In this document: positions 5,647 to 57,615 of the stretch, piece by piece
Layout: each line of letters opens with the position of its first letter
Position numbering within the stretch: the first letter of the stretch is position 1
NCBI GenBank assembly: GCA_963714095.1
Contig: OY970230.1
Coordinates: 198,206 to 262,205, forward strand
Direction of reading: 5' to 3'
Length of the DNA: 64,000 nucleotides
DNA from: Candidatus Gottesmanbacteria bacterium
Lineage (GTDB): Bacteria > Patescibacteriota > Microgenomatia > UBA10105 > UBA927
Position numbers and translations under genes: made by a program
The notes under the pieces: model-generated
What the model saw: the letters and a program-made list of their open reading frames with translations, nothing else
Told to the model about the DNA's origin: nothing
The model's database searches: none

Positions 5647-6729
5647 TCAGGTAAGATGCTCGTTTTGGGTACCCTTTAAACTTTCAACGAGTTTTTTAAT
5701 TTTCGGAACGGAGGATTTGTTGCAGACCAGAATCACATCGTTTGTTGCAACGATAAGGGCATCCTTCACGTCTATCGTCGTCACCAGCTGATCCGTGTAA
5801 TTATAGACCAATGAATCTTCCGTGTCCGTCAGGAGCACTTTTCCCTCCGTTACGTTTTTATCCGCAGCCTCCTCAAGCGCTTCTTTTAATGCTTCCCACG
5901 CCCCGATATCACTCCATCCGATATCCTCAGAAATAACATAGGCAGTAGACGGATTCAGATTTTCCAGAATCAGATTATCAAAACTGTTTTTTTCCAATGT
6001 AGGATAGACGCTGGCAAGCGTTTCCTCGAACCGATCTGTATGCCAGCTCTCGGAAATACGGGAAAGTCCCGCATATATATTCGGTGCAAACTGTTTATAT
6101 TGCGACCATAAAAATTGCGGCGTGGTGACAAAGTATCCTAGATTCCAAGCATGATGATCACTTTCAAAGTACCGTTTCGCTGTTTTTGCGTCAGGCCGGT
6201 ATTGACAGTCAACAAACGAATAAATTGGAATTTCGTTGGCGGTCATCATTCTTTTACCGTACTCAATCCACCCCAAATTTTCACTGGCAAACCGTGGTTT
6301 TTGCGCAACAAACACTATCCTGTTGGAATCTTTTTTTACAATTTCTCCTGCAGCAACAAGAATTTTCCGGAACAGTGCTTCCTTTTTTACCAAATGATCG
6401 CTCCACACAATGACCATAGGCTCCAGAGGAAAATCCCGGACAAGGAGTGACGTAATCAAACCAACCGCAGGCCCGACATCCCGCATCTCCGGCTCGCCTA
6501 TCACGTGATCAGGCGGCAATTCCCCTAATTGTTTTTGGACGATCGCAACATACGGCGCGCCCGTGGAAACATAGATGTCCTTCCATGAAAAGTCCGGCAG
6601 CAATCTGTTGGCTGCCAGCTGCAAGGTTGAGGAACTTCCTATAATTTTTTCAAACTGTTTCGGAGATTTTTTCCGGGAAAGCGGCCATAACCGCGTTCCC
6701 ACTCCTCCTGCAAAAATGACTGCTTTCAT
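5647..6729 (-). CDS. mannose-1-phosphate guanylyltransferase-like nucleotidyltransferase (no PMI domain)
   Basis: N-terminus MKAVIFAGGVGTRLWPLSRKKSPKQF is the ManC/NTP-transferase signature. Length 360 aa. Confidence 0.8.
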   Translation of the reverse strand: MKAVIFAGGVGTRLWPLSRKKSPKQFEKIIGSSSTLQLAANRLLPDFSWKDIYVSTGAPYVAIVQKQLGELPPDHVIGEPEMRDVGPAVGLITSLLVRDFPLEPMVIVWSDHLVKKEALFRKILVAAGEIVKKDSNRIVFVAQKPRFASENLGWIEYGKRMMTANEIPIYSFVDCQYRPDAKTAKRYFESDHHAWNLGYFVTTPQFLWSQYKQFAPNIYAGLSRISESWHTDRFEETLASVYPTLEKNSFDNLILENLNPSTAYVISEDIGWSDIGAWEALKEALEEAADKNVTEGKVLLTDTEDSLVYNYTDQLVTTIDVKDALIVATNDVILVCNKSSVPKIKKLVESLKGTQNEHLT

Positions 6730-18326: not shown

Positions 18327-19940
18327 TCATTTTTCAGGTAAATAATACAAAAACTCCTGTGCTTTTGCCCGTTGCTGTTGTGTTAACCCTGATACTAAAG
18401 ACTTTTTTATATAGAGACATGTAGGTTTTCCTTCCGAATACCACTGTGCATAGAAAGGTAAAAATTGGGACGGAAAACGCGGATGAACCGGTGCGTCCGG
18501 AGTGCAAAAATCATACAGGATATCCGGCGGATCATGGGTAAACATATCGATCATGGCGTTATAATATTTATCTTTAAATCGGATCGGGTAGTAAAACGAA
18601 TATGAATAAGAAGAACTCCTGCCTGATGCGACATACAAAAACTCATCCGCTCCGTTGGTAAAAAGCGTTTGCTGAGGCACAGTTACTGCTTTAATAACTT
18701 CACTTATCTGCAAATAATTCCCGTAATTGGTGATAAACTCCGTCTGCTCGTCAACGTGCTGGTAGATGAAAGATCGCGGAGAAAATAACACGTAGGCAAC
18801 TAAGCACCCTATGATAATAAAAAATATGTATCGTTTACGGACTACCCAAAGCATTTCATAAAAAAGATACAACGACGAAAACAGGAAAATACCATACCAG
18901 TTTATTTCGTGAAACGCTTCAAAATATTGCAAACCCGGAATTGCAGGCCGGAGATTTGCCAAACCCAAAACAATAAAAAGGAATCCCAATACCCACATGT
19001 TTTTCTTTGTTTTCAGCCACAGAAAAACAGAAAAACCAAAAACGACAGTCAAACATATCAATTGAATACGAAAATCATTCCACCTTCCGGCAATAAGAAT
19101 ATAGAGGGGGTAAAAAAATGACTTAACGACGCCGGTACCGAAAAAATGACCCGCTTGCAGCTCGCTGGGTAATCCTGTCTGTAAATTCAGGGTAATAACA
19201 TTATAAACAAAATCACGGACAGGAAACAATATGAATAATCCCGCGGTTAAAATAAAAAATATAGCGAGGGCGATTTTACCGACATTTTTGAAAAACACAG
19301 GGCGGATAATAATGCCAAAAAGAAATATCGCTACCAACACGTACGGTTCTCGCATAAACACAACAAACCATAGACACAGGGCTGTTAAAACGATCTCCCA
19401 ATGGAACACAGGTTTCTTGCGGAGCGTATGCAATCCCAAACCGGTTAGGTACACGAGGGGATATACGATAAAACCTTCAGCCAGAAACCTATCACCAAAA
19501 ACATAAAATTTTGAAAATTCATATAAGAGTGTATATGCAAATCCGGTTATTCCGAACCTCCAACAGATAAAAACGTCAAAAACAAATCCAAACACTAATA
19601 AAAACTGCCGGTGTTGCAATAACAATGCATATATATTAACCGGATGCCCATAGTGCTGAATAACCAAACTAAGATATGCCATAAGCGGCATGTGGTTAAA
19701 GTAAATTTGTGAATACAGTTGCTTGCCCTTCCCAATAAAATATCCGCCAACATAGTTAAAACAGTCATCGAAACAACCAAACGCATTAATTTTCGGAATA
19801 TAGATCTTATAAAGAAAATAATACACAGGGATAAGAAGAATAAACCAGATCGTCAGGCGTACTAACGGATGTGATAAAACGGCGTTCCATGCAAAAGCAT
19901 TATTCTTTTTTTGCATAAGGATCAGGGGAATAACCATCAC
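18327..19940 (-). CDS. polytopic membrane protein, possible GT-C-like glycosyltransferase or polymerase
   Basis: More than 10 hydrophobic segments. The first loop has an acidic cluster, FGCFDDCFNYVGGYF. Soluble C-terminal ~130 aa. An alternative start at the ATG at 19916 would shorten the overlap with galE. Confidence 0.5.
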   Translation of the reverse strand: MMVIPLILMQKKNNAFAWNAVLSHPLVRLTIWFILLIPVYYFLYKIYIPKINAFGCFDDCFNYVGGYFIGKGKQLYSQIYFNHMPLMAYLSLVIQHYGHPVNIYALLLQHRQFLLVFGFVFDVFICWRFGITGFAYTLLYEFSKFYVFGDRFLAEGFIVYPLVYLTGLGLHTLRKKPVFHWEIVLTALCLWFVVFMREPYVLVAIFLFGIIIRPVFFKNVGKIALAIFFILTAGLFILFPVRDFVYNVITLNLQTGLPSELQAGHFFGTGVVKSFFYPLYILIAGRWNDFRIQLICLTVVFGFSVFLWLKTKKNMWVLGFLFIVLGLANLRPAIPGLQYFEAFHEINWYGIFLFSSLYLFYEMLWVVRKRYIFFIIIGCLVAYVLFSPRSFIYQHVDEQTEFITNYGNYLQISEVIKAVTVPQQTLFTNGADEFLYVASGRSSSYSYSFYYPIRFKDKYYNAMIDMFTHDPPDILYDFCTPDAPVHPRFPSQFLPFYAQWYSEGKPTCLYIKKSLVSGLTQQQRAKAQEFLYYLPEK

Positions 19941-20910
19941 GATGATTTTTATGCCATTTCCAGGCAGATGAAACGATAGTTTCTATATCTGAGTATTTTG
20001 GCCGCCAGCCGAATTCTTTCTTAAAATGTGTGGAGTCTGCAACGAGACTGTGCGGATCACCCGCCCGCCGCGGTGCCTCCCGCACGGCAAAATCTACCCC
20101 GGTCACCTTTTTAACCTCCGCGACAACTTCCTTATTTGTCATCCCATCCCCTGTTGCGAGGTTATATACGTCGGTTTTATGACCATGAGTTAATGCGTCC
20201 AGCGCCAATAAATGCGCCTCCGCAAGGTCCTCAATATGAATGTAGTCCCGCAGACACGACCCGTCGCGCGTCGGATAATCAGTTCCATACAGCAAAAATT
20301 CTTTCTGCTTTCCCATAGCCACACGGATCGCAACCGGAATAATATGTGTTTCAGGGAGATGATCTTCGCCGTTATCACCGCCCAGCGCTGCACCGCATGC
20401 ATTAAAATACCGGAGACTGATACTTCTTATATGATGCTGATAATCCGTCACGCGTAATAGCTCCTCGAAACACCATTTCGACAGCCCGTACGGGCTCGTG
20501 GGATTTTTTGCATGACTCTCCGGTATCGGAATAATTGTCGGATTTCCGTAGACGGCGGCAGTGGAAGAAAAAATAATTGTATCAACCCCATGCTCCTGCA
20601 TCACAGCGAGGAGTGTCATGGGCGCAATAATATTATTTTTCATGTATTTAATAGGATCCCGGACGGATTCTTCCACCATGAGGTATCCGGCAAAATGGAT
20701 GACTGCTTCAATCGAATATTTTGAAAAAATCGGCTCGAGCGTTGCTTTATCTTTAATATTACCCACGATAAGAGGCACCGTGGCCGGTAACGCCTGCCTG
20801 TGGCCGTATTCGAGGGAATCCACGACGATCGGGTGGTAGCCCCGCGCAACAAGCATCCGCACCATATTGCTTCCGATATAGCCGGCGCCTCCGGTAACAA
20901 GCACGTTCAT
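19900..20910 (-). CDS. galE: UDP-glucose 4-epimerase family (GalE)
   Basis: MNVLVTGGAGYIGSNMV, SSTAAVYG and PYGLSKWCFEELL (YxxxK) give a canonical GalE layout. Length 336 aa. Confidence 0.88.
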   Translation of the reverse strand: MNVLVTGGAGYIGSNMVRMLVARGYHPIVVDSLEYGHRQALPATVPLIVGNIKDKATLEPIFSKYSIEAVIHFAGYLMVEESVRDPIKYMKNNIIAPMTLLAVMQEHGVDTIIFSSTAAVYGNPTIIPIPESHAKNPTSPYGLSKWCFEELLRVTDYQHHIRSISLRYFNACGAALGGDNGEDHLPETHIIPVAIRVAMGKQKEFLLYGTDYPTRDGSCLRDYIHIEDLAEAHLLALDALTHGHKTDVYNLATGDGMTNKEVVAEVKKVTGVDFAVREAPRRAGDPHSLVADSTHFKKEFGWRPKYSDIETIVSSAWKWHKNHRDGYSPDPYAKKE

Positions 20911-20914: not shown

Positions 20915-21136
20915 CTATTTTACTTTATTGGGCCGCAGGAGGGAAATCAGAAGGAAAGAGAGCGTGAACGCAGCACCATACCAAGTCAGACGCTCGGCGG
21001 TAAAAAAAGTCCACGTAGCAAATAACGGAATCGCCAAAACCCAGCTTGCGAGGCCGGCAAACAGAAATAACCGGGGCTTTCTAATTAAAAGTAATACGAC
21101 AAATACCAGAAAAAATCCTATATCCTGCGGCTTCAT
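20915..21136 (-). CDS. small hydrophobic membrane protein (73 aa, 2-3 TM)
   Basis: Almost entirely hydrophobic (FFLVFVVLLLI, LFLFAGLASWVLAIPLFATWTFF, AAFTLSFLLISLL). Tightly packed between the UXS-like gene and galE with a 4-nt overlap. Confidence 0.5.
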   Translation of the reverse strand: MKPQDIGFFLVFVVLLLIRKPRLFLFAGLASWVLAIPLFATWTFFTAERLTWYGAAFTLSFLLISLLRPNKVK

Positions 21137-22077
21137 TGTTTGTAATATGCAATCGTTTTATGTAACCCATCTTCGACGGTCACCTTTGGCGTCCATTGTA
21201 AACGGGTTTTTATCTTTGTTATATCCGGCTTACGCTGGGTCGGATCATCCTCCGGCAATGCTTCAAAAGTAATGGGGGACGCCGATCCTGTCAGCACCTT
21301 AATTTTTTGAGCAAGATCTTTAACCGTGTACTCTTCCGGATTTCCCAGATTAAATACTTCACCTTTGAGGTTGTCGGCGAGCATAACCGCCAGAATTCCG
21401 GATACGAGATCCGAAACGTAACAAAATGACCGGGTCTGTGAACCGCTCCCAAATACCGTCAACGGTTTTTCTTCAAGGGCCTGGTTAATAAAATTTGAAA
21501 CCACACGACCATCATCTTTGCGCATCCTCGGGCCGTAGGTGTTGAATATGCGGATAATACGGGCATCAAGGCCGTATTTCCGAACATAAACCATTGTGAT
21601 TGCCTCTGCAAACCGCTTGGATTCATCGTAACATGCGCGGACTCCGTTAGGATTCACGTTCCCCCAATACAATTCTGTCTGCGGATGCTCCTTTGGATCC
21701 CCGTATACTTCCGATGTGGATGCCTCTAAATATCGTGATGTATGATCCCGCGCAAACTGCAACATATGAATGGTCCCAACTGAGTTGACCAACGCAATTT
21801 CCTCGGAGAGTTTTTTAAAATCCATCGGCGAAGCCGGAGACGCAAGGTTAAAGACGTAATCAATGTGTCCTAGAATATCGGGAGCTGACTCGATAATATC
21901 GTGGCGCAAAAACGAGAAATTTGAGTTTTGTTTCGCCGATTCAATATTTTTTTCAGATCCTGTCAGAAGATTATCTATGCACAATACTTTGTGCCCGAGT
22001 CCCAGTAACGCATCACAAAGGTGCGATCCGATAAATCCTGCCCCGCCGCTAACTACGCTGGTTTTTTGATCTGTCAT
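21133..22077 (-). CDS. UDP-glucuronate decarboxylase (UDP-xylose synthase / ArnA C-domain-like SDR)
   Basis: VVSGGAGFIGSHLCDALL...IDNLLTGSEKNI...STSEVYGDP...YDESKRFAEA matches the UXS family pattern. I chose the start at the ATG at 22077 (MTDQKTSVV); the listed ORF extends to 22116. Confidence 0.82.
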   Translation of the reverse strand: MTDQKTSVVSGGAGFIGSHLCDALLGLGHKVLCIDNLLTGSEKNIESAKQNSNFSFLRHDIIESAPDILGHIDYVFNLASPASPMDFKKLSEEIALVNSVGTIHMLQFARDHTSRYLEASTSEVYGDPKEHPQTELYWGNVNPNGVRACYDESKRFAEAITMVYVRKYGLDARIIRIFNTYGPRMRKDDGRVVSNFINQALEEKPLTVFGSGSQTRSFCYVSDLVSGILAVMLADNLKGEVFNLGNPEEYTVKDLAQKIKVLTGSASPITFEALPEDDPTQRKPDITKIKTRLQWTPKVTVEDGLHKTIAYYKQ

Positions 22078-22081
22078 GCAT

Positions 22082-22792
22082 CTATTGTAGCATACGGATA
22101 CGGATGGCTCCTGCAAGCGACCGCAGGAGTTCTTTCACGTTTGCATTGGAAGCTCCATGTGTTCTGTCCCGGAAACTTATGGGGACTTCCGTTATTCGAA
22201 AACTGTTCTGCTTCAGTTTATATGCTATTTCCGACAGTACGATAAACCCGGTTTCATGAAGGTGCACGCGCACCAAAAATTCCGCTGCTTTTCGGGAGTA
22301 TAATCGGAAACCGTTGGTATAATCCGTTAAGTGCAACCCAAGCCATATGCTTAACAAGGCGTTAATTACTCTGCTTTGAATAAGTCGACGCCACGGCCAT
22401 TTTACAATATGGCTCTGTTTAAGATACCGCGAACCGATAACCAAATCTGCCCCGCGGCGTACGGCTAAAAACCGTCCGAACTCTGCCGGTGAATGCGCTA
22501 GATCTGCATCCATCTCAAAACAATATTGTATTTCCTTATGTTTGAGGGCTTCAGCTAATCCCCGAATGACGGCACTCCCTCTGCCCATTTTGTGCTCGCG
22601 GGAAATAAGAACCACGTTGGGAAAATCCCTTTGAAGCATTCCTGACAGTTGTATTACTTCGTTGGCAGGAGAGTCATCAACAACCACGATCAGAGCATCC
22701 GGGAGGTATTTTTCTATATCTTTTAATAAAATACTTAAATTTTTTTGTTCGTTATACGCCGGAATAATGACTGAAATACCTTGATTATTCAT
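22082..22792 (-). CDS. polyprenyl-phosphate glycosyltransferase, GT2 (DPM1/ArnC-like)
   Basis: ISVIIPAYNEQKNL...VVVDDSP...GRGSAVIRG...FEMDADLAHSP has the DPM1-type MDADLSH-like motif. Length 236 aa, no TM tail. Confidence 0.8.
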   Translation of the reverse strand: MNNQGISVIIPAYNEQKNLSILLKDIEKYLPDALIVVVDDSPANEVIQLSGMLQRDFPNVVLISREHKMGRGSAVIRGLAEALKHKEIQYCFEMDADLAHSPAEFGRFLAVRRGADLVIGSRYLKQSHIVKWPWRRLIQSRVINALLSIWLGLHLTDYTNGFRLYSRKAAEFLVRVHLHETGFIVLSEIAYKLKQNSFRITEVPISFRDRTHGASNANVKELLRSLAGAIRIRMLQ

Positions 22793-25096: not shown

Positions 25097-25120
25097 AATG
25101 AATTATTTTAAAACATACCC

Positions 25121-26980: not shown

Positions 26981-26983
26981 ATG

Positions 26984-37773: not shown

Positions 37774-38823
37774 TCAATGTTTTCCTGCATTAAAACACAT
37801 ATCTGACAGAATCTGATCAATAGTATATGTATAATTCCACTTGGGGTAATGTCGTTTAAATTTATTTACATCAGATATATACCAAATATGATCTCCTATC
37901 CGTGGTCTATCAACATATCGAACACGAATTTTTTTGTCAAGTAATTTTTCAACTTTCCGGATTGCTTCAAGAATAGAAATACTGGCATGTCTGGATCCGC
38001 CGATATTGTAAACCTCACCGCTCCTTGGTTTCTTATATACCTCATAAAATGCTCTTATCAGATCCATTGAATGGATATTGTCGCGAACCTGTTTCCCCTT
38101 ATAACCCAGAATAGTATATTCCGTGTCTTCTTTGATGCATTTTACAAGATATGCTAAAAACCCGTGAAGTTTAACTGCGGAATGCATTGGTCCTGTAAGG
38201 CATCCGCCCCTAAACACGGTTGTTTTCAAGCCAAAATATCTTCCGTACTCCTGAACCATAAGATCAGCAGAGGTCTTTGAAACTCCAAAAATACTGTGTG
38301 TTGTATGGTCCAGACTCATCGTTTCATCAATTCCGTTATATAAGTGATGGCTGCGAGGAAGTTCCCATCGTGTTTGTTTTTCAATAAACGGCAGCAGGTT
38401 CGGGCTGTCACCATAAACTTTATTGGTTGAGGTAAATATAAATACCGCTTTCGGACAATATTTTCTGTATTGCTCTAATAAGAGAAGTGTCCCATATGCA
38501 TTAACCGAAAAATCCGTTAATGGTTCTTTTGCTGCCCAATCGTGTGACGGCTGGGCCGCCGTATGTATAATTAAATCAAAGGTATGATGAGAAAATAGAT
38601 TCCGTATTTTTATTTCATCACGTATATCAATTGTATGATGGTGATAATTACTAAATAATTTTATTAATCGTTTTTTGCTCCACGTTGTGTCACCATCTTT
38701 ACCAAAAAAATACGATCGCAGGTTATTATCTATACCATGAACGTCAAAATCTTTTGCACAAAAAAAAGCTACCGCTTCGGATCCAATAAGGCCATTCGAT
38801 CCTGTTATGAGAACTTTTTTCAT
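37774..38823 (-). CDS. NAD-dependent sugar epimerase/dehydratase (extended SDR; possibly CDP-paratose/tyvelose 2-epimerase-like)
   Basis: [18 protein letters not shown] Rossmann motif, [24 protein letters not shown] (YxxxK-type). The subfamily guess rests only on length, overall pattern and the CDP-sugar context. Confidence 0.75.
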
Positions 38824-47720: not shown

Positions 47721-49031
47721 TTATCGCAGGTTTTGTAATCGGAAAAATGATTCCAATGTTTTTTCTATATATCCGATCATTTGAACTGTAATACCGGGCC
47801 AGACTCCTATCCAAAATCCGTAATTCATAACCGTGTCTGAATTTTTCATAGATCCGGAAATACGTATATCTTTTCTACCGATATAGGCGGGGTGACGAAG
47901 AAGGTTTCCGGCAAACAGATTTCGGGTCCCGATGTTATGTTCCTCCAAATACTTGACCAATTCCAGCCGTGTAAATGGCGCAGTATCTTTGACAACCAGC
48001 ATAAATCCGAACCAGCAGGGGTCAGAGACCGGATCCCACTCGGGCAAAATAAAATATTTCTCATATTTTTTGAAAAAATCATATAGAAGGGTGAAATTTC
48101 TCTTACGCTTTTTTATAAATACGGGAAGTTTTTTTAACTGGGCAACGCCGATAGCCGCCTGAAAATCAGTCAGCTTGAGATTGTAACCGATTTGAGAATA
48201 AATATATTTATGATCGTATCCTTTCGGCAGTTCCCCAAGCTGCCAGCCAAAACGCCGTTTGCATGTATTGTCCTTCCCCGTATCGCACCAGCAATCCCTC
48301 CCCCAATCACGGAACTGACGCAGAGCCTTATGAATCAGAGGATTATTCGTCACAATCGCCCCGCCTTCGCCCATGGTAATCTGATGTGCCGGATAAAAAG
48401 AAAAGGTCCCGATATGGCCAAACGTGCTTAACTTTTTGCCCTGATATGTCGATCCGAGCCCGTCGCAGCAATCCTCAATAAACCATAGATTATACTTCAC
48501 TACGAGCCGCATAATGCCCTCTATGGGCAAAGGATTCCCGAGGGTATGTGCAAGCATGATAACCCTTGTTTTCTTCGTTATAGCCTGTTCTATAGCCTCA
48601 CACGTAGGATTTCTTGTCCCCAAATCAACATCTACGAATACCGGCACGCATTTATTCTGAATAATAGGATTAACGGTCGTCGGAAAGGCACACGCTGCGG
48701 CGATGATTTCATCTCCCGGCTTGAGTGCTTTTTTGCCGAATACGGAAGACGTGAGGGCGGTCAATGCCAGCAAGTTGGCGGAAGATCCGGAATTTACCAG
48801 TGTTACGTATCGTATGCCGAGATACGAAGCAAAATTCTTTTCAAACTTTTTGGCAAACTCCCCCTCCGTCCACCACCCGTCCAGCACTGCTTCCGCACCA
48901 CTGAGCAATTCCTGTTGGTCAAACACTTTCCCGGAAACCGGTACTGAAGACTTTCCGGGTTTAAATGGACGGGTGGAATATTTCTGACGTGCGTATGAAC
49001 GAATTAGCCCTGCAATATTTGCTGGCATCAT
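47721..49031 (-). CDS. rfbH: CDP-4-keto-6-deoxy-D-glucose 3-dehydrase (E1; RfbH/DdhC/AscC type, PMP and [2Fe-2S] dependent)
   Basis: DegT-family fold, but the Schiff-base Lys is replaced by His: FYPAHQITMGEGG, with H216 at nt 48384-48386 (checked; codon CAT). Cys189, Cys247, Cys249 and Cys257 give exactly C-X57-C-X1-C-X7-C. RfbH-type N-terminus PVSGKVFDQQELLSGAEAVLDGWWTEG. Confidence 0.9.
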   Translation of the reverse strand: MMPANIAGLIRSYARQKYSTRPFKPGKSSVPVSGKVFDQQELLSGAEAVLDGWWTEGEFAKKFEKNFASYLGIRYVTLVNSGSSANLLALTALTSSVFGKKALKPGDEIIAAACAFPTTVNPIIQNKCVPVFVDVDLGTRNPTCEAIEQAITKKTRVIMLAHTLGNPLPIEGIMRLVVKYNLWFIEDCCDGLGSTYQGKKLSTFGHIGTFSFYPAHQITMGEGGAIVTNNPLIHKALRQFRDWGRDCWCDTGKDNTCKRRFGWQLGELPKGYDHKYIYSQIGYNLKLTDFQAAIGVAQLKKLPVFIKKRKRNFTLLYDFFKKYEKYFILPEWDPVSDPCWFGFMLVVKDTAPFTRLELVKYLEEHNIGTRNLFAGNLLRHPAYIGRKDIRISGSMKNSDTVMNYGFWIGVWPGITVQMIGYIEKTLESFFRLQNLR

Positions 49032-49954
49032 ATATTTTTCTTCAAAATCGACTGAATTGTTTCTATAATTTGGTTGACAGTCAAACCGTTGGCCTCTCTC
49101 ATATATTCCTGCAAACCCATACCTTTCGTAAACCTATCGGGTACACCGATTCGCCTGAAAGGAATTGCATTACCGTGTTCCGCGAGTATTTCCGATACTG
49201 CGCTTCCTAATCCTCCGATTACACTGTGTTCCTCCAAAGTAAATATCGCTTTCGTGTATTTTGCGGAATCCAAAATCAATTGCTGATCTATGGGTTTTAT
49301 TGTATGCATACTGATCAACCGTCCCTGCATTCCCTGAATGGCAAGTTTCTCAACCACATCTATACCGCGTGCGACAAGCGTTGATGTTGCAATAAGACAA
49401 TAGTCCTTTCCTTTCCTCAGGATAATACCCTTACCAATTTTAAAATGCGGCGGCTTATCATACAAACGAGGTTCTCCGGCTTTCCCGATCCGCAGATAGA
49501 CGGGACCTTTGTGCATCAAGGCGGCCCGCGTCGCTAGCTCCGCCTCTATCGGATCTGCCGGGCAGACTATTGTCATGTTCGGGAGGGTTCGCATTATACC
49601 GATATCTTCCAGACTATGATGTGTATGTCCGTAGGGACCGTATGCGAATCCCGCCCCAACACCGACAATTTTAACATTCAAATTTTGATAGCAAATATCA
49701 TTCCTCACCTGTTCAAAATTCCGCATGGTAACAAACGGAATAATAGAATAGATAATAGGAATTTTTCCCTCAAGCGCCATACCCGCCGCGACCCCTGTCA
49801 TGTTCTGCTCGGCAATCCCCATATTAATATATTGCCGGGGCACCTCATGAATATACTTTTCAAAAACGGAATATCCCAAATCTCCTGTAAGCAGGATGAT
49901 CCGTCTATCTTGTTTTGCCAACTGAAGTATCGTTTTCGTAAATGCTATTCTCAT
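49028..49954 (-). CDS. transketolase, C-terminal (pyrimidine-binding/C-domain) subunit
   Basis: MGIAEQNMTGVAAGMALEGKIP and HHSLEDIGIMRTLPNMTIVCPADP are typical of split transketolase subunit B. ATGA overlap with the rfbH start. Confidence 0.9.
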   Translation of the reverse strand: MRIAFTKTILQLAKQDRRIILLTGDLGYSVFEKYIHEVPRQYINMGIAEQNMTGVAAGMALEGKIPIIYSIIPFVTMRNFEQVRNDICYQNLNVKIVGVGAGFAYGPYGHTHHSLEDIGIMRTLPNMTIVCPADPIEAELATRAALMHKGPVYLRIGKAGEPRLYDKPPHFKIGKGIILRKGKDYCLIATSTLVARGIDVVEKLAIQGMQGRLISMHTIKPIDQQLILDSAKYTKAIFTLEEHSVIGGLGSAVSEILAEHGNAIPFRRIGVPDRFTKGMGLQEYMREANGLTVNQIIETIQSILKKNI

Positions 49955-50796
49955 ACTGCTTCCAAATCCTTTAATGCTTTATCAAACTCCTTTTCCGTCG
50001 GAGCTTTATACTGGGACGAAACTGTGCCTATATACCTGGCTACACCCCCAAGACCTTTTATCGTATGAGCGATAATTACCGATGGCTTTCCGTTTCGGAA
50101 TGGAAGAGTTCTAAACGTTTGGATAACTTTCTTAATATTATGCCCGTCTACCTCCGCGACTTCCCAATCAAAACTTTGCCATTTTTCTTTCAACGGTTCC
50201 AGATCTAACACATCTTTGGTGAATCCGAAGCCCTGCAGCTTATTATAATCGACGATAGCAATAAGGTTATCCAGCTTATGATATCCGGCAAACAATATAG
50301 CTTCCCATGTAGAACCTTCATCACATTCACCGTCGGACAGTACAGCGAATACTCGATAAGCCTTTTTATCCTGTTTCCCTACCCACGCCATTCCTGCAGC
50401 CATGGGTAACCCGTGGCCCAGAGAACCGGACGAAATTTCAATACCCGCGATACCTCGTACCGAATGTCCCGGCAATAATCCGCCGTCATGCTCATAGCCT
50501 TTCAACAGTTTTTTATCAAAGAAGCCACGTTCTGCAAGTACGGCATACAGAGCTTTAGCGTCATGCGCTTTGCTGAATACCAGCCTGTCCCGACGTGGAT
50601 TCACCGGATCGCCGGGATATACCTTCATTATCCGAAAATACAACGCTACCAAAATTTCCACACACGATAGCGCGCCGCCCGTATGTGCACTCTGAGCCAG
50701 ATAGCTCATCGTCAGAATATCCCGACGGATATCTCTTGCAATAGTTTCTAACGTTTTTCTTTTACTACGGGTAATTGTTCTCATCTTCAGTATCAA
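49951..50796 (-). CDS. transketolase, N-terminal (ThDP-binding) subunit
   Basis: SAHTGGALSCVEIL, SKAHDAKALYAVLAERG, and the ThDP/Mg motif VLSDGECDEGSTWEAILFAGYHKLDNLIAIVDYN. Confidence 0.9.
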   Translation of the reverse strand: MILKMRTITRSKRKTLETIARDIRRDILTMSYLAQSAHTGGALSCVEILVALYFRIMKVYPGDPVNPRRDRLVFSKAHDAKALYAVLAERGFFDKKLLKGYEHDGGLLPGHSVRGIAGIEISSGSLGHGLPMAAGMAWVGKQDKKAYRVFAVLSDGECDEGSTWEAILFAGYHKLDNLIAIVDYNKLQGFGFTKDVLDLEPLKEKWQSFDWEVAEVDGHNIKKVIQTFRTLPFRNGKPSVIIAHTIKGLGGVARYIGTVSSQYKAPTEKEFDKALKDLEAV

Positions 50797-50921: not shown

Positions 50922-52034
50922 TTACCGATATCGAATAAGTTTTGTGAGCTTCTCACAAATGAATGCAACGTCCGATTCTGTTATATCGGCGGCAGACGGC
51001 AGGTTGAATCCATATTTCTCTACTTTTGCGGCTTCAGGATTAGGGAATCGGCGCTCGTACATGGGAAATCCGCTCATCCGGGGAAACGCGACCCTTCCAT
51101 GAATATTCCATCGTTCCAATTTACTTACCAAATCCTTATTGGATATTTTTTTTGAAGTGAGTAAAGCGGAGGGATATGCGTAATTACTGCGGCATCCGGG
51201 CCTTTCTTTAATGAGTTTTAATTCATGTACATCTTTCAGCCGTGAGTAATACCAGCCGAATATTCTCCGTTTTTTTGCAACGAGTTCTTCTATGCGCTCG
51301 ACCTGAGCAAGCGCCAGGGCTGCTGTCACATTTGCCATTTGATATTCATATCCCAGTGAATCACACCAAAAATTGAATTTCCTATTCGTTCTGCCCATGT
51401 TACTGAAAAGAATAGCTTTATCAAGGTATGCCTTATTATTTGTAATAAACATCCCGCCTTCACCAGAAACGGCGATTTTTGCCCCATGAAATGAATAGGC
51501 GCCGACGTCACCGAACGTGCCCACTTTCTTTCCTTTATATAAGGAGCCGAGCGAAGGAGCCGCATCTTCAATAACTTTAAGTTTATACTTTCCGGCAATT
51601 CGCATTATTTCATCCATTTCCGCCGGATGCCCGAAGGTATGAACGAGCATAATACCTTTCGTCTTTTTTGTAATTGCGCGTTCTACGGCTTTGGGATCAA
51701 TACACCATGTATCAGGATCAATATCAACAAATACAGGAGTTGCACCCGTATATGCGATCACGTGAGCGGTTGCGGCCCAACTGGTATCCACACATATTAC
51801 CTCGTCACCTTTTTGAAAACCGCAGACCAAACATGCAAGATGGAGTGAATGTGTTGCACAAAAACCGGCTAAAGAATACTTCGCACCGGTATAGTCACAC
51901 ATACGTTTTTCTAGTTTCTTTATATGCTTGTCAAATGTTGAGTACCACCCTGTCTTAACAGCATCGACAACATAATCAACTTCTTTTTGAGTCATCGATG
52001 GACCTGCAAAACTAATCCTTTTATATTTTTTCAT
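50922..52034 (-). CDS. DegT/DnrJ/EryC1/StrS-family NDP-sugar aminotransferase (PLP-dependent)
   Basis: Retains the catalytic Lys: AYSFHGAKIAVSGEGGMFITN. Length 370 aa. Confidence 0.9.
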   Translation of the reverse strand: MKKYKRISFAGPSMTQKEVDYVVDAVKTGWYSTFDKHIKKLEKRMCDYTGAKYSLAGFCATHSLHLACLVCGFQKGDEVICVDTSWAATAHVIAYTGATPVFVDIDPDTWCIDPKAVERAITKKTKGIMLVHTFGHPAEMDEIMRIAGKYKLKVIEDAAPSLGSLYKGKKVGTFGDVGAYSFHGAKIAVSGEGGMFITNNKAYLDKAILFSNMGRTNRKFNFWCDSLGYEYQMANVTAALALAQVERIEELVAKKRRIFGWYYSRLKDVHELKLIKERPGCRSNYAYPSALLTSKKISNKDLVSKLERWNIHGRVAFPRMSGFPMYERRFPNPEAAKVEKYGFNLPSAADITESDVAFICEKLTKLIRYR

Positions 52035-52719
52035 ACGGTAATTTCATAACTACACTATATCGTTTTATTGTTCCTTTATAACCTTTGGGTGCATTTTGCC
52101 ATTCAATTCTATCAGATTTAACAATCCTGATCATGGGCGTCCGTTTCACTTCAGTAAAATCAAGCTTTCGGTAAAGGCGAATGGCTCTTATATTATCAGA
52201 CGTTGTAGACAGCATATACGTTTTAATTCCAAATTCAACCCTGCCCCAACATATCATATGACGTATCGCATCTTCTATAATTCCGGGGTATAAATTCACA
52301 CCACGCACAATATTATCTATTTCGCAGATACGTTTTTGAAAATTAAAACGATACAAGCCGATATGACCGATGTACCGGTTTTTTACTTTTATCATAAATA
52401 AAATCCTGTCGGGTTCATTCACAACTTTATCGCGCAACCATTTTTCGGTTCCTTCCAAGGTAACCGGGAATATTGCAGGAAACCATTGCTCATGCTTTTT
52501 TCTCCATAACGCGAGTAGTTTAATAATTTTTTTATCAGTTCTCTGGTTGTCCGTAACGAGAACTAAATAATAACGAATTTTTCTAAAAATTATTTTAATT
52601 TGTAATTTTTTTCCGTGTTTAAGCAATGAAATTTTGTCTTTCACCAAACTGCTGATATCTCGCTCCGTTAATTTCATAATCAACCTAATGCTCTGTCTTT
52701 TATTCTTTCGATATATCAA
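52021..52719 (-). CDS. GNAT-family N-acetyltransferase (PseH/WecD-like sugar N-acyltransferase candidate)
   Basis: IGHIGLYRFNFQKRICEIDNIVRG ... AIRLYRKLDFTEV has a GNAT-like core. Overlaps the aminotransferase start by 14 nt. Confidence 0.6.
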   Translation of the reverse strand: MIYRKNKRQSIRLIMKLTERDISSLVKDKISLLKHGKKLQIKIIFRKIRYYLVLVTDNQRTDKKIIKLLALWRKKHEQWFPAIFPVTLEGTEKWLRDKVVNEPDRILFMIKVKNRYIGHIGLYRFNFQKRICEIDNIVRGVNLYPGIIEDAIRHMICWGRVEFGIKTYMLSTTSDNIRAIRLYRKLDFTEVKRTPMIRIVKSDRIEWQNAPKGYKGTIKRYSVVMKLPYEKI

Positions 52720-52723: not shown

Positions 52724-53686
52724 TTATTTCAAGATAGAATTATACCAGCGGCGGATTAAAGGAAGTGTGTTTTTAATCGAATATGTAGGTCTCCATCCCA
52801 GATTGATAATCTTCCCTGCATTCAAATGCTGGTACGGAATTTCGTTCTTCGCCGAGTTTTCTATAACATACGGTATTTTTCTTTTTAGTATCCTTTCTGT
52901 TTGCCTGATGAGAGCTATCACTGAACACGAGTCGCTGGAGGATAAATTAAATGCCTCCCCATTAGTTTTATCTCTATGTTCAAGAAGGAACAAATAGCCG
53001 GATACTACATCTTCAACGTAAATATAGTCCCGGACATATGAACCGTCACTTCGAATAACCAATTTTTCTTTCGTGACAACTGCTTTCATTATTCCCGGAA
53101 TAATCCGTGAAAAATTCAGATCACCTTCTCCGTAAATATTTCCTGCCCGTGTAACGACGATAGGCAAATGGTATGTTTTTGCGTATGCGTGTGCGAGAAG
53201 ATCCGTTGCCGATTTAGAAACCTCATATGGATGGTCGCCTCTCAAAGGATCCGTCTCGATATAGGGTTTCCTGCTTTTTCCGTAGCTTTTATCAGACGAT
53301 GCAACAATGACTCCTTTCACATGAGTAAAAAGTCGTGCCGCATCGAGAATATAGGTGGTACCCATGATATTAGTTTCAATTGTTTCCACGGGATTTTCGT
53401 AGGCAGTAGGCACTATTGCCTGAGCGGCTAAGTGGAAAATATAGTCAATTTCATATTTTGACACGATATCAAAAACCCGATCTTTATCTTTAAGGTCACA
53501 TGAAACAAGAACGGTATTTTTTGATAACCGTTCGGTCATGAAATATGAACGGGGGTCTAATGATCGAAACGGCACAAATACCGTTGCATGCCTCCCTAGT
53601 AAGGCTTTCACAAGATGACTTCCAACAAACCCCGTTCCGCCTGTGACCAGAATGTTCTTTCCTGTTAATCTTTCCATATTTTCCAT
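52724..53686 (-). CDS. NDP-hexose 4,6-dehydratase, CDP-glucose 4,6-dehydratase (RfbG)-like
   Basis: ILVTGGTGFVGSHL, PYEVSKSATDLL (YxxxK), and TRAGNIYGEGDLNFSRIIPGIMKA resembling the RfbG RAGNVIGGGD...R.iP element. It sits next to rfbF. It is shorter (320 aa) than the classical RfbG. Confidence 0.65.
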   Translation of the reverse strand: MENMERLTGKNILVTGGTGFVGSHLVKALLGRHATVFVPFRSLDPRSYFMTERLSKNTVLVSCDLKDKDRVFDIVSKYEIDYIFHLAAQAIVPTAYENPVETIETNIMGTTYILDAARLFTHVKGVIVASSDKSYGKSRKPYIETDPLRGDHPYEVSKSATDLLAHAYAKTYHLPIVVTRAGNIYGEGDLNFSRIIPGIMKAVVTKEKLVIRSDGSYVRDYIYVEDVVSGYLFLLEHRDKTNGEAFNLSSSDSCSVIALIRQTERILKRKIPYVIENSAKNEIPYQHLNAGKIINLGWRPTYSIKNTLPLIRRWYNSILK

Positions 53687-54441
53687 TCAGGATTCCGTTT
53701 CCATAATGTATTAAGACGTTCCAAATCCGCATATGTATCCATCGATTGCCAAAAACCTTTATGGACAAAAAGAGATAGCTCCCGGTCTTTAACAAGCCTT
53801 TTTAGTGCCTCATGTTCATATTCAGCCGGCCGCAGATAATTAAAAAACTTTTTATCAAATACCATAAATCCGCCGTTTACCCAATCCTGTAAAACAGGTT
53901 TTTCGACAAACTCCGTTACCCTGTGTTTAACATTTTGCCGGACCATTCCGTATTTACTTTTCGGATACACGCCAGTTATGGTACCGATTGTTTTTTGTTT
54001 TCTGTGAAACTGAACTAATTGCCGGATATTGATATTAGACACACCGTCCCCGTACGTAACCATAAAATCTTTATCAGTTTTCGGGATATAATCTTTTACA
54101 CGTATTATTCTTTCACCCGGAAGTGTCCCCTCTCCCGTATCTACAAAGGTAATTTTGAAATTATCGGCGGCAGATGGGTTTTTATGAAAAATCGCTGAGC
54201 CGGATTTTGTGGATAACGTAAAATTTTGTGAAAAATATTTTTGATTTAAAAAATACTCCTTAATCATATCCCCCTTATACCCGAGGGCAATGATAAAATC
54301 ATTAAACCCGTAGTACGCATACATTTTCATGATATGCCACAGGATTGGTTTATTGCCGACCAACACCATGGGTTTTGGTTTAAACTCTGTTTCCTCCTTT
54401 AATCTGTATCCTATACCGCCACATAAAATAATCGTCTTCAT
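53665..54441 (-). CDS. rfbF: glucose-1-phosphate cytidylyltransferase
   Basis: MKTIILCGGIGYRLKEETEFKPKPMVLVGNKPILWHIMKMYAYYGFNDFIIALGYKG is the canonical RfbF N-terminus. Length 258 aa. Confidence 0.92.
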   Translation of the reverse strand: MKTIILCGGIGYRLKEETEFKPKPMVLVGNKPILWHIMKMYAYYGFNDFIIALGYKGDMIKEYFLNQKYFSQNFTLSTKSGSAIFHKNPSAADNFKITFVDTGEGTLPGERIIRVKDYIPKTDKDFMVTYGDGVSNINIRQLVQFHRKQKTIGTITGVYPKSKYGMVRQNVKHRVTEFVEKPVLQDWVNGGFMVFDKKFFNYLRPAEYEHEALKRLVKDRELSLFVHKGFWQSMDTYADLERLNTLWKRNPEWKIWKD

Positions 54442-54498: not shown

Positions 54499-55608
54499 TT
54501 AGATGTGTATTGCTTTATTTAATAAATGGAGACTTTGTTTAACGGCATCTGTCCAACGCAGGTTGGCTACCCACTTTCTGGCGTTTATTTGATATTCTTT
54601 ATAGTGTAATTTGTCTCTATATAATTTCACCGCCTCCCGTGCCATTTCTCGGGGCGAGCAGCTTTCGATAACCATCCCTGTTTTTCCATGAATGACAACG
54701 TCCCTCAATCCGGGAACGTTATAAACAATTGCAGGTGTGCCTACGGACGCAGCCTCAAGAACAACAAGTCCCCACCCCTCTTTCACAGATGCGTGAAGAA
54801 GAAGGTGTGCCCGTGCCATACGGTTATATTTTTCTTTTTCAGAAACGTTTCCAAAAAAGATTACCCGTTCTTTTATACCGTATTCCGTTATCATTCTTTT
54901 CAATTCATCGATATACTCAGGCTCACCGCCTCCGATAATCCATAACACTGCATCCGTCTGTTCACGCACAATAAACGAAAACGCTTTAATAACCTCCTCG
55001 ATACCCTTCATACGGACGACACGGGATACAAACAGGTATGTAGGATGTATTTCTTTATTTTTCGAGGTTATATGAAACCGGCCGTGTACGGTAATCGGAC
55101 AGGGAATATTTACGCATTGTGATCGGGGAATACCGCGGGATACCAGTTCATCAATCGTCGACGGCGCATCCGTCCAAAAATAACAGTGACGATACAATCG
55201 GAAACACCATCGTTCCAGAAATTTTCCGATGACGTTTTTGGGAAACGAAAACATATAATCCCATATTTCTCCTGCTATCTCATGAATAAAAACGACGACC
55301 GGTTTCCCAGTGAAGAGCGTAGAAAAAAAAGGAAATCCGTGCACCTCGTCGACAATGATATCAAAAGCATTCCTGTGAGTAAGCAAGTAAAATGGGACGT
55401 ACAGATATATTGTGAGTGAGCCCGCCCGCCGGATAAAACGGACACTCTGAACCGTTTCTTCTTTTTTAGCACCGGAATATGCGGCAGTGAGCCATGTCAC
55501 ATCATTCCCCGCTGCCACCCACCCCTTTGCATGCTCAAAGGTCACTACTTCGGCCCCTCCGGATTTCGGATGACGAACATCACGCCAATTAAGTATTAAT
55601 ATGCGCAT
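54499..55608 (-). CDS. glycosyltransferase family 4 (GT-B)
   Basis: MRILILNWRDVRHPKSGGAEV opening. C-domain EGWGLVVLEAASVGTPAIV. Confidence 0.9.
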   Translation of the reverse strand: MRILILNWRDVRHPKSGGAEVVTFEHAKGWVAAGNDVTWLTAAYSGAKKEETVQSVRFIRRAGSLTIYLYVPFYLLTHRNAFDIIVDEVHGFPFFSTLFTGKPVVVFIHEIAGEIWDYMFSFPKNVIGKFLERWCFRLYRHCYFWTDAPSTIDELVSRGIPRSQCVNIPCPITVHGRFHITSKNKEIHPTYLFVSRVVRMKGIEEVIKAFSFIVREQTDAVLWIIGGGEPEYIDELKRMITEYGIKERVIFFGNVSEKEKYNRMARAHLLLHASVKEGWGLVVLEAASVGTPAIVYNVPGLRDVVIHGKTGMVIESCSPREMAREAVKLYRDKLHYKEYQINARKWVANLRWTDAVKQSLHLLNKAIHI

Positions 55609-55616
55609 AATTCTTC

Positions 55617-56807
55617 CTATTTATGTCCGGCAGTAAATACCTTTATGATTGTTTGGATTTCTCCAGTCGTCAGTTCCGGATTATTGCCAAAATATAATCC
55701 TTGTTCATGTATGAGCTTCACGTTGACGCATTCGCGGAAATTACCCTTCACGTATTTGGTAAAAAACGGTTGTTCTGTCATATCGCCGCCGACAACCGGC
55801 CTGATTTCAATCCTGTTACCGCAGGCCTTTACTAACGAATCCCGGATTGCGGTTGATTTGCATATAACGGGCACGGCAAAATTTGAAATTGTATCCATGT
55901 GATCATATCGTATAGGATAGTAATCCGGCGACTGATAAATTCTTCCGGCAATTTTTTTAAAATTATTCTGCCGTTTCTTAATTATTTCAGGGAGAAATTT
56001 AATTTGAATTTGTCCTAGATACCCGGTAATTTCCGTCGGACGGAAATTATACCCTAAATCATAGAACGTATACCGCCCATAAAACGACGGGTTTGCAAGA
56101 AATTTTCTCCGGGCCGTCTGTTCCGGAACTGACAGATTTCTATCCCAACCGTGAGCCCGCACCATGATGAGCATACTCGCGAGATCACTGTTATCTGTAC
56201 AAACCGCACCTCCTTCGACTGTTGACATGTGGTGTCCAACGTAAAACGAAAATGTACCTGCCTCTCCGAAATTACCGAGTTTTTTGGCATGATAAACAGA
56301 TCCCAGAGATTCACAGTTGTCTTCTACGAACAGCATGCCGCGTTTATTGCAGAGATCCATAACTTTATCAATATCGTCACATAATCCGAGAAGGTTTGTA
56401 AGGAGAAGTGCTTTTAGTTTATACCTAGCTAATGTGTTTAACAGGGTTCTACTGGATACATTCAGGGTGTCTAGTTCCACGTCAACTGGTACCGGCTTCA
56501 GACCCAACTGAATAAGCGGCATAACGTTGGTAGACCATGTGACGGCGGAAAATCCGACCATGTCTCCTTTGTGAATTTTACCTAGATTAAGAAGGGCCTG
56601 AATAAGCGCTAAATTTGCGGAACTGCCGCTGTTGAGCAATACACAGTATTTTTTCCCCTGCCAGAAAGCAAATTGTTTCTCAAATGCTTCGCACTCCTTA
56701 CCGAAACTTAACTGTTTGGCGACCAATAAAAATTGGATCAGCTTCCGTTTTGTTTCGTTTTCTTTATAAAATGTCGATTTTATAAGTGTAATCATGTTAA
56801 TGAACAA
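55617..56807 (-). CDS. ColD-like NDP-4-keto-6-deoxyhexose 3-dehydratase (DegT fold, His replaces catalytic Lys)
   Basis: GTFSFYVGHHMSTVEGGAVCTDN (H192 at the Lys position, nt 56232-56234), EDNCESLGSVY, VRAHGWDRNL, IEIRPVVGG and GLYFGNNP. These closely parallel the ColD sequence as I remember it. There is no Fe-S Cys motif. Confidence 0.78.
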   Translation of the reverse strand: MFINMITLIKSTFYKENETKRKLIQFLLVAKQLSFGKECEAFEKQFAFWQGKKYCVLLNSGSSANLALIQALLNLGKIHKGDMVGFSAVTWSTNVMPLIQLGLKPVPVDVELDTLNVSSRTLLNTLARYKLKALLLTNLLGLCDDIDKVMDLCNKRGMLFVEDNCESLGSVYHAKKLGNFGEAGTFSFYVGHHMSTVEGGAVCTDNSDLASMLIMVRAHGWDRNLSVPEQTARRKFLANPSFYGRYTFYDLGYNFRPTEITGYLGQIQIKFLPEIIKKRQNNFKKIAGRIYQSPDYYPIRYDHMDTISNFAVPVICKSTAIRDSLVKACGNRIEIRPVVGGDMTEQPFFTKYVKGNFRECVNVKLIHEQGLYFGNNPELTTGEIQTIIKVFTAGHK

Positions 56808-56823: not shown

Positions 56824-57615
56824 TTACCCTATGTTTATGCGGAAATTCAATTCCGGATCAAACCGCCACTTTCGTTTGCTTGCATCATCATAATAATGAA
56901 GAATACGCAAACGATAAAATACTGCAAGAGTATCATTCAGCGTATTGTAAATGACCGGCAGAAATTTTCTCCAGGAAATGCTCGATTTTGCGGAAAATAA
57001 ATTAATTTCTATCGGCGCTTCATATATTTTTCTGTATCCTAAATAATATGCCACGGCAAGTATTTCAATATCGAAGGCAAATTGTTTTACGAGGAGTCTC
57101 GGAAGAACATCTTCTAGAAGCTTTCGCCTGTATATTTTCATCCCCACCTGCGTATCACGCACATTTAGTCCGAATAATATTCTCGTAATTTGTTGATATA
57201 CCCACGAAATAATTTTTCGTATATACGGATACTCTACTTTTGAATCCGGGTGGCGTTTACTTCCGATAATTGCATCCGCATGTTGAAACTCAAATTCTGC
57301 AAGCATGAGAGGAAGTGCTTCCGGCTTAAGATCTCCCCCCGCATCCATAAAACCGACAACATCTCCTTTTGCCTGAGAAAAACCGAATCGCACTGCATAT
57401 CCCTTTCCGTGATTGGTTTGATAACCTGTTATATGAACCCGAGAATCATGTATTGTTTTAATTTCTTCTGTGCTCTTATCCAATTTTCCGTCAATGACCG
57501 GAATAATCTCAAAATCTCTATGCATCTTTGATAATACGTTGATGATATCCGTGATATCACGTTTAATTGTTTTTTCCTGTTTATAGACCGGAATAATAAG
57601 ACTAAATTTTTTCAT
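56824..57615 (-). CDS. GT2 glycosyltransferase, polyprenyl-phosphate glucosyl/mannosyl-transferase-like
   Basis: FSLIIPVYKQEKTI...HGKGYAVRFGF...FMDAGGDLKPE has the DPM1/Alg5-like layout. Length 263 aa. Confidence 0.75.
   Translation of the reverse strand: MKKFSLIIPVYKQEKTIKRDITDIINVLSKMHRDFEIIPVIDGKLDKSTEEIKTIHDSRVHITGYQTNHGKGYAVRFGFSQAKGDVVGFMDAGGDLKPEALPLMLAEFEFQHADAIIGSKRHPDSKVEYPYIRKIISWVYQQITRILFGLNVRDTQVGMKIYRRKLLEDVLPRLLVKQFAFDIEILAVAYYLGYRKIYEAPIEINLFSAKSSISWRKFLPVIYNTLNDTLAVFYRLRILHYYDDASKRKWRFDPELNFRINIG

Follow-up and report, generated by a model that had tools for sequence, protein, structure and literature searches.

A probable ColD-type, Fe-S-independent sugar 3-dehydratase encoded apart from gmd and colC in a glycan locus of Candidatus Gottesmanbacteria

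We analysed a 64-kb stretch of contig OY970230.1 of a Candidatus Gottesmanbacteria bacterium (the window). On its minus strand, the window carries a gene for a DegT-fold protein, here called the dehydratase, in which histidine replaces the catalytic lysine. The protein is probably a GDP-4-keto-6-deoxy-D-mannose 3-dehydratase of the ColD type, i.e., an enzyme that depends on pyridoxal or pyridoxamine 5'-phosphate (PLP/PMP) but not on an iron-sulfur (Fe-S) cluster, and whose pathway partners are encoded outside the window or have been replaced. Observed directly are the fold, the His-for-Lys exchange, the lack of an Fe-S motif, the membership in the ColD clade and a GDP-sugar gene neighbourhood conserved among orthologues, the closest of them 82% identical. 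The odd feature of this locus is the loss or relocation of the gmd and colC partners around an intact gene.

In the list of open reading frames (ORFs), the gene appears as a mechanical ORF of 396 aa on the minus strand (55617..56807) that opens with TTG. The TTG at 56807 is probably unused. The true start is almost certainly the ATG at 56795, because the orthologues all begin MIKLIKSTF and a database protein with 100% identity to the dehydratase (P0001) has 392 aa. A preliminary description of this DNA, made from the sequence, had reported a 396-aa DegT-fold ORF with an HH pair at the Lys position and several ColD-like blocks. The ORF exists, and the pair and the blocks are all present on translation, but the length has to be corrected to 392 aa. 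The ATG sits 28 nt past the stop of the upstream gene, which encodes a family 2 glycosyltransferase (GT2). With numbering from this ATG, the HH pair begins with residue 188, the same number as in ColD. The gene is evidently real and not a chance ORF, since thousands of homologues exist and three contigs of the Gottesmanbacteria genome, from at least two assemblies, encode the identical protein. A foreign origin was considered and dropped, as the GC content around the gene (0.41) equals that of the neighbouring genes and synteny with relatives is kept.

The dehydratase matches the Pfam family DegT (PF01041, DegT/DnrJ/EryC1/StrS) over residues 18-390 (E=2e-58). Its top NCBIfam model is RfbH, the E1 family, at 216 bits, below the cut-off of 423. 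In a sequence search of the PDB, four entries of E. coli ColD rank on top (2gms, 4.7e-61, 210 bits), followed by E1 (3bcx, 7.6e-47), by 9wvy (3.6e-36), which the PDB entitles "putative NDP-4-keto-6-deoxyglucose-3-dehydratase" (NDP, nucleoside diphosphate), and then by aminotransferases (<=1e-28). An AlphaFold (AF2) model was built from an alignment of 30 orthologues (pLDDT 82.9, pTM 0.85). Its best 12 Foldseek matches in the PDB are ColD chains only (TM about 0.82), followed by a sugar transaminase, E1 and GDP-perosamine synthase.

At the position of the Schiff-base Lys, direct translation gives FYVGHHMSTVEGG; the segment 56211..56249, which translates directly to SFYVGHHMSTVEG, contains His188. 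The triplet G187-H188-H189 aligns with S187-H188-H189 of ColD, and His188 aligns with the ColD residue mutated in 3b8x (H188N) and 2r0t (H188K). A [G/A]-H-H triplet occurs in 77/77 family members examined. The catalytic column holds His in the dehydratase and Lys in the DegT proteins of the Lys type that the window and related loci encode. Positions matching D159, E162, R219, N248 and R331 of ColD, for which we assume the roles they have in that enzyme and computed conservation alone, are invariant in 30 orthologues. Further blocks of the dehydratase (EDNCESLG, RAHGWDRNL, IRPVVGG and GLYFGNNP) have counterparts in E. coli ColD (EDNCESMG, RAHGWTRNL, CRPIVTG and GLFVGNH).

Alignment with E1 bears out the earlier statement that the E1 Cys motif is absent. 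The dehydratase reads EDNCES and HGWDRNLSVPEQ where E1 features EDCCD and RDCYCAPGCDNTC, the four-Cys Fe-S motif is missing, and the 216-235 loop contains no Cys. All four E1 Cys columns are occupied by Cys only in Yersinia E1 and in a second window protein, an E1 that keeps EDCCD and RDCWCDTGKDNTC; they are not so occupied in the dehydratase or in 109 representative sequences of the family. Of 86 columns conserved to at least 95% in 76 orthologues, the dehydratase keeps 85, the sole change being Phe to Leu. One such deviation is the median among orthologues, and nothing in the sequence points to decay.

Homologues of the dehydratase number in the thousands and are widespread in Patescibacteria. 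The best 120 are 64-82% identical to it, and every organism-named one among them is from Patescibacteria (Microgenomates, Levybacteria and others). Scanning species-representative genomes with the dehydratase yielded 80 loci (47-66% identity), by record titles mostly from Patescibacteria: Microgenomates-type, Parcubacteria, Peregrinibacteria/Peribacteria, Kerfeldbacteria, Berkelbacteria, SR1 and Vampirococcus. Among 1.84 billion 50%-identity representatives, 704 match at E<=1e-30. The near-full-length sequences from the best 150 representatives (109/109) all have the catalytic His and are without the four-Cys pattern.

In a neighbour-joining tree rooted on the Lys-type aminotransferase of the window, two E1 sequences are sister to one large clade that holds both E. 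coli ColD and the dehydratase. The tree, a check suggested in the preliminary description, places the dehydratase with ColD and not among aminotransferases that lost the Lys. Within this Fe-S-less clade, which is poorly resolved, E. coli ColD lies in one part and the Patescibacteria sequences, including the dehydratase, lie in another. NCBI names several orthologues "DegT/DnrJ/EryC1/StrS aminotransferase", and JGI names many "CDP-4-dehydro-6-deoxyglucose reductase, E1" or "CDP-6-deoxy-D-xylo-4-hexulose-3-dehydrase". The JGI names are probably wrong, because the Fe-S motif is missing and the gene neighbourhood is of the gmd/fcl-like kind. Literature searches found no biochemical data for any member of the Patescibacteria ColD branch and no account of colitose-type genes in Patescibacteria. 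In some proteins of 520-880 aa (P0243, P0244, P0288, P0293, P0298, P0306 and others), a ColD-type domain is fused to an extra domain of about 150-370 aa, which is N- or C-terminal of it depending on the protein.

To describe the gene neighbourhood, ORFs were called in all fetched loci and clustered, and gene order was read around each orthologue; counts refer to 78 loci, the window's own included. The recurring order is gene A, dehydratase gene and gene B on one strand, which is usually gmd-colD-colC. Within three genes of the dehydratase, Gmd is encoded in 43/78 loci and an Fcl-like short-chain dehydrogenase/reductase (SDR) in 44/78, and at least one of the two is present in 59/78. In 35 loci the next gene downstream encodes the Fcl-like SDR. 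The gmd gene directly precedes the dehydratase gene in 25 loci and directly follows it in 11. Gene A is gmd: its product has GITGQDGSYLAELLL, scores 508-578 bits with TIGR01472 (cut-off 415) and is 90% identical to proteins named GDP-mannose 4,6-dehydratase by NCBI. Gene B encodes the Fcl-like SDR of about 315 aa. Its top family is GDP-L-fucose synthase (205-281 bits, about 465 in a few loci; cut-off 500), and its top structures are GDP-L-fucose synthase and GDP-mannose 3,5-epimerase, a profile that would fit the expected ColC-type GDP-sugar epimerase/reductase. In some loci a small Nudix protein, whose best, weak match is GDP-mannose mannosyl hydrolase, is often adjacent. The neighbourhood of the orthologues matches the colitose pathway gene set (gmd, colD and colC, with gmm); for instance, locus L010, with a 65% identical orthologue, has the order gmd-colD-colC-Nudix.

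The substrate of the family is most likely a GDP-sugar, because orthologues with 47-66% identity occur in gmd-colD-(Fcl-like) cassettes and the 82% identical orthologue retains a colC-like gene. The preliminary description had allowed that the enzyme acts on another NDP-4-ketosugar, an option that these cassettes disfavour. A ManC-like gene in the window was counted toward the supply of a GDP-sugar substrate. It had been noted before, and its Pfam domains match; its score with TIGR01479 (213 bits) is below the cut-off of 373, and no other gene of the GDP-mannose pathway was seen in the window. Assignment to ColD proper, i.e., to a colitose pathway, would be based on the gene neighbourhood of the orthologues, which the window itself does not share.

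In the window, GT2, the dehydratase and a family 4 glycosyltransferase (GT4) follow one another, with 8 bp between the dehydratase and GT4. Closely related loci feature the same block with or without an additional gene. L090 (82% identity to the dehydratase) has the order GT2 (263 aa), dehydratase, Fcl-like SDR (317 aa) and GT4, and L086 (71%) has dehydratase, Fcl-like SDR and GT4. L087 (74%) has GT2, dehydratase and GT4, and a separate Fcl-type gene is found 4.4 kb downstream. The GT2 of the window is 82% and 73% identical to the gene at the same position in L090 and L087, respectively, and its GT4 has 66-71% identity to the GT4 encoded next after colD or colC in L090, L086 and L087 (70% in L090). 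Because the flanking genes are orthologous across the window and its relatives, the colC-like gene is, judging from gene order, a presence/absence polymorphism inside a conserved GT2-colD-[colC]-GT4 block. The top families of GT2 are weak matches to polyprenyl-phosphate sugar transferases (ArnC, PgfS and PpgS).

Several observations weigh against a ColD assignment. The 64-kb window contains neither gmd nor an Fcl/ColC-like SDR gene. The preliminary description had reported the same, and the four SDRs of the window (GalE, UXS/ArnA-like, CDP-tyvelose-2-epimerase-like and a short 4,6-dehydratase-like SDR; Table 1) are all of other types. The 4.8 kb past the right end of the window, read from a 7.8-kb contig, contain GT2 and MptA_B-like genes but no gmd. 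With the colC-like protein of L086 as query, none of the best 120 matches listed (all at least 65% identical) comes from the contigs of this genome, and the colC-like partners of the 82% and 79% relatives were recovered; this genome therefore probably lacks a close colC-like gene. Moreover, the Microgenomates-type loci closest to the window are usually without gmd within 10 kb. In L016, a short 4,6-dehydratase-like SDR gene lies immediately upstream of colD, the place of gmd elsewhere, and L007 carries an SDR gene of the same type three genes upstream of colD. These short SDRs, also found in L020, score similarly with the CDP (156 bits), dTDP (154) and LegB (141) models and may be non-canonical 4,6-dehydratases that supply the dehydratase. 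Finally, the identity of the dehydratase to experimentally characterised ColD (35%) is close to its identity to E1 (32%). Since neither gmd nor colC is beside the dehydratase gene, the partners of a ColD-type enzyme would be encoded elsewhere or replaced by other enzymes.

For the dehydratase, we infer the substrate nucleotide, the chemistry and what this organism does with the product; the mechanism is modelled on ColD as summarised in PMC8987622. By analogy with ColD, PMP would form a Schiff base with the C4 keto group of GDP-4-keto-6-deoxy-D-mannose, His188 would take the C4' proton and the 3-OH would be expelled. Hydrolysis of the enamine would then release GDP-4-keto-3,6-dideoxy-D-mannose and ammonia. 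Glutamate would recharge PLP to PMP, and hence no reductase would be required. In most relatives, Gmd would supply the substrate and the Fcl-like (ColC-like) epimerase/reductase would use the product to form a colitose-type 3,6-dideoxyhexose for a surface glycan. The flanking GT2 and GT4 probably install the resulting sugar.

Among known enzymes, the closest likeness is to ColD (WbdK), the GDP-4-keto-6-deoxy-D-mannose 3-dehydratase of E. coli O55 and Yersinia pseudotuberculosis (PDB 2GMS, 3B8X, 2R0T and 3GR9). ColD is the best match in both sequence and fold, has His188 at the same number followed by a second His, lacks an Fe-S motif and shares the EDNCES, RAHGW(D/T)RNL and GYN(F/V)RP blocks; in addition, orthologues of the dehydratase occur in gmd-colD-(Fcl-like) cassettes that resemble the colitose genes. 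The dehydratase differs from ColD by an identity of no more than 35%, by Gly rather than Ser at position 187, by its place in a separate, Patescibacteria-wide branch of the Fe-S-less clade and by the lack of gmd and colC beside it.

A C3-dehydratase of Campylobacter jejuni HS:5/HS:11 acts on GDP-6-deoxy-4-keto-D-lyxo-heptose (PMC10440746). That enzyme is likewise PLP-dependent and ColD-type and uses a GDP-linked 4-keto-6-deoxy sugar; the ColD family therefore tolerates varied sugar moieties. In contrast to the dehydratase, the C. jejuni enzyme is 62-67% identical to ColD (PMC10440746). A heptose substrate as in C. jejuni was rejected for the dehydratase, as the window has no heptose-nucleotide genes. 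Such genes do occur near the L086 orthologue.

E1 (RfbH/DdhC/AscC), the CDP-6-deoxy-D-xylo-4-hexulose 3-dehydrase (PDB 3BCX and 3BB8), has a homologous fold, carries His instead of Lys and begins with the same half-reaction, and a true E1 is encoded in the same locus. E1 binds a [2Fe-2S] cluster through four Cys (one in EDCCD and three in C-x-C-x7-C), needs a reductase and uses a CDP-sugar. It is about 45 aa longer than the dehydratase, which has no such Cys motif and scores well below the RfbH cut-off. GDP-perosamine synthase (PDB 3BN1 and 3DR4) shares the DegT fold and is among the next-best fold matches, but it has a catalytic Lys, acts at C4 of GDP-4-keto-6-deoxymannose and transaminates without dehydration; its identity to the dehydratase is about 22-24% in structural alignment.

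Starting at about 5 kb and up to its right end, the window holds almost exclusively glycan-synthesis genes on the minus strand. In the order of transcription, the dehydratase is followed by GT4, a cytidylyltransferase-like gene, the short SDR, a GNAT acetyltransferase, a Lys-type aminotransferase, a split transketolase, E1 and a methyltransferase. The E1 gene lies 6.6 kb downstream of the dehydratase. Together with clade membership, this gene, which scores above the RfbH cut-off, upholds the earlier description of the dehydratase as a second, ColD-type deoxygenase beside E1. The accompanying proposal, that one locus makes two 3,6-dideoxyhexoses by two mechanisms, is plausible and has a precedent in L028, where an E1 with intact Cys motif and a membrane protein precede gmd-dehydratase-colC-like. 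E1 homologues are also found within 10 kb of the dehydratase in L073 and L013.

The short SDR scores 189.5 bits with TIGR02622 (cut-off 278) versus 168.9 for the dTDP-glucose dehydratase model, and its PDB matches are 1rkx (1.4e-37) and 6bi4 (7e-37). With the adjacent RfbF-like cytidylyltransferase, it may form an alternative local source of an NDP-4-keto-6-deoxyhexose. The RfbF-like/SDR pair also occurs 6-7 kb downstream of colD-colC in L007 and L016 and at about 1 kb in L037. Because it coexists there with an intact dehydratase/colC-like pair, the CDP-type module is, on this comparison, a separate unit often present in the same glycan island and not the usual partner of the dehydratase. In L016 the module runs into a transketolase subunit 64% identical to that of the window.

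Rival readings that keep the ColD chemistry are all less probable than a ColD-type enzyme whose partners lie outside the window or have been replaced. We regard it as unlikely that the enzyme is ColD-type but uncoupled from ColC, its product being aminated and acetylated to "N-acetyl-3-deoxyperosamine" or, in a variant, its substrate having been switched to the CDP-sugar of the adjacent gene pair.

The second of these options, taken by itself, is distinctly unlikely. The same chemistry would operate on CDP-4-keto-6-deoxy-D-glucose, or on its manno epimer made by a TyvE-like SDR, and the cytidylyltransferase-like gene (second downstream) and the 4,6-dehydratase-like gene (third downstream) would supply the substrate of a reductase-independent route beside E1. 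The dehydratase indeed shares a co-directional, tightly spaced gene string with the RfbF-like gene and the short SDR, and profile searches of the window proteins found no E3-type reductase, as they found no Gmd and no ColC. The window also encodes a CDP-tyvelose-2-epimerase-like SDR whose closest solved relative, the 9rl0 enzyme, turns CDP-glucose into CDP-mannose (PMC13098431), and a related short SDR occupies the gmd position immediately upstream of colD in L016 and lies three genes upstream in L007. However, the RfbF-like/SDR module is independent, being found 1-7 kb from an intact colD-colC-like pair in L007, L016 and L037, and the partner conserved across the family resembles GDP-fucose synthase. 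The dehydratase shows no departure from family-conserved positions, and the locus already has E1 for CDP-sugars. In L007, the gene directly after the dehydratase gene is the orthologue of the CDP-tyvelose-2-epimerase-like SDR gene, and in both L007 and L016 this orthologue is part of the cytidylyltransferase module.

Diversion of the product is less probable still. Here, GDP-4-keto-3,6-dideoxymannose would be aminated by the Lys-type aminotransferase of the window and N-acetylated by the GNAT protein to a 4-acetamido-3,4,6-trideoxyhexose instead of colitose. Both proteins are candidates for using a 4-keto-3,6-dideoxy sugar. The top PDB matches of the aminotransferase include two GDP-perosamine synthases, 3bn1 and 3dr7 (E about 1e-67), and structure 3dr7 holds GDP-3-deoxyperosamine, meaning that this enzyme type accepts a 3-deoxy sugar. 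In L013 (63% identical orthologue; 10001-12303), the place of colC is taken by a gene for a Lys-type DegT aminotransferase, which shares 4 nt with the dehydratase gene, and colC is missing from both the window and the L087 block while the dehydratase stays intact. Nevertheless, the aminotransferase and GNAT genes are inside the string that extends from the RfbF-like gene to E1 and might just as well act on the E1 product, an orthologous GNAT gene did not turn up beside colD in other loci, and Gmd, none of which was found in the window, would still be required. The aminotransferase is just 34% identical to the gmd-adjacent aminotransferase of L010, too low an identity to establish orthology of the two. 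We know of no natural glycan with 4-acetamido-3,4,6-trideoxyhexose ("N-acetyl-3-deoxyperosamine") as a constituent. In L013, an E1 homologue lies 7 kb beyond the dehydratase/aminotransferase pair.

It is very improbable that the gene is a stranded remnant heading to decay, its pathway gone after the loss of colC and perhaps of gmd. The empty colC slot, the lack of a close colC-like gene of this genome among the best 120 matches and the lack of gmd in the window speak for it. On the other hand, the frame is intact, conserved columns are kept at the family median, and the gene is tightly packed in an operon; the identical protein is present on three contigs, and a second lineage, L087, keeps colD without an interposed colC. 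That the dehydratase is an ordinary sugar aminotransferase with a chance loss of Lys, as its DegT family membership and the NCBI names of several orthologues would have it, is hardly credible. All 109 sampled representatives of its clade have the His, characterised ColD belongs to that clade, the Lys-type enzymes encoded in the same loci fall outside it, and the gene neighbourhood follows the colitose pathway pattern.

Table 1 Features of the window around and beyond the dehydratase gene, with short SDRs of related loci
Feature	Position	Strand	Remarks
ColD-type 3-dehydratase, coding sequence	55617..56795	-	392 aa from ATG at 56795
His188 codon	56232..56234	-	His replacing Schiff-base Lys; context G187-H188-H189
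Dehydratase/GT4 junction, 8 bp	55609..55616	-	Site of colC-like SDR gene in closest relatives
GT2 glycosyltransferase	56824..57615	-	263 aa; conserved upstream neighbour; Pfam, NCBIfam
GT4 glycosyltransferase	54499..55608	-	369 aa; conserved downstream neighbour of colD(-colC); Pfam
Glucose-1-phosphate cytidylyltransferase-like (RfbF-like)	53665..54441	-	TIGR02623 272.8 bits, cut-off 300
Short CDP/dTDP-glucose-4,6-dehydratase-like SDR	52724..53686	-	Last of the four window SDRs
GNAT acetyltransferase	52021..52719	-	Pfam
Lys-type DegT aminotransferase	50922..52034	-	Pfam; PDB matches 7b0m, 3bn1, 3dr7
True E1/RfbH Fe-S 3-dehydrase	47721..49031	-	NF011936 650 bits, cut-off 423
CDP-tyvelose-2-epimerase-like SDR	37774..38823		Best solved relatives 9rl0 (2e-38), 1orr
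UXS/ArnA-like SDR	21133..22116		
GalE SDR	19900..20910		399 bits
ManC-like mannose-1-phosphate guanylyltransferase	5647..6729	-	Pfam NTP_transferase and ManC_GMP_beta-helix
Short SDR of related loci, 309-320 aa	L016:9022-9951; L007:7180-8118; L020:6456-7418		

Other parts of the locus were noted in passing. The transketolase that precedes E1 is split into an N half (49951-50796) and a C half (49028-49954), and a methyltransferase gene follows E1. The presence of a transketolase by E1 suggests a branched-chain or two-carbon-extended 3,6-dideoxy sugar. The two domains of one GT4 are divided over adjacent ORFs, with the N domain only in 8261-8782 and the C domain only in 7786-8271, and a lone GT4 N domain (17765-18325) is beside a full GT4 (region 16635-18325). 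Similarly, in L088 (180-972), another assembly of the same genome, the upstream GT2 is split into 153 and 112 aa, whereas in the window it is intact (263 aa). These split GT4 and GT2 ORFs are probably frameshift errors of long-read assembly, or pseudogenes. Regions 22814-31629 and 40021-41694 contain several large ORFs (557-986 aa) with no or marginal Pfam matches (DUF5667; Wzy_C-like elsewhere), which probably encode uncharacterised membrane or surface proteins.

In the most economical reading, the dehydratase is a known type of enzyme with partners outside the window; the enzyme is ordinary, and its setting is slightly unusual. What sets the locus apart is solely that colC is cleanly missing beside an intact gene and that the 64 kb hold no gmd. 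The analysis brings to light a large branch of the ColD family in Patescibacteria that is uncharacterised and whose members are often labelled aminotransferases or mislabelled E1. The finding implies a common occurrence of colitose-type 3,6-dideoxy sugars in the surface glycans of these ultra-small bacteria. An intact dehydratase gene from which the reductase gene is cleanly absent, beside a CDP-sugar/E1 module, may inform the modularity of these pathways.

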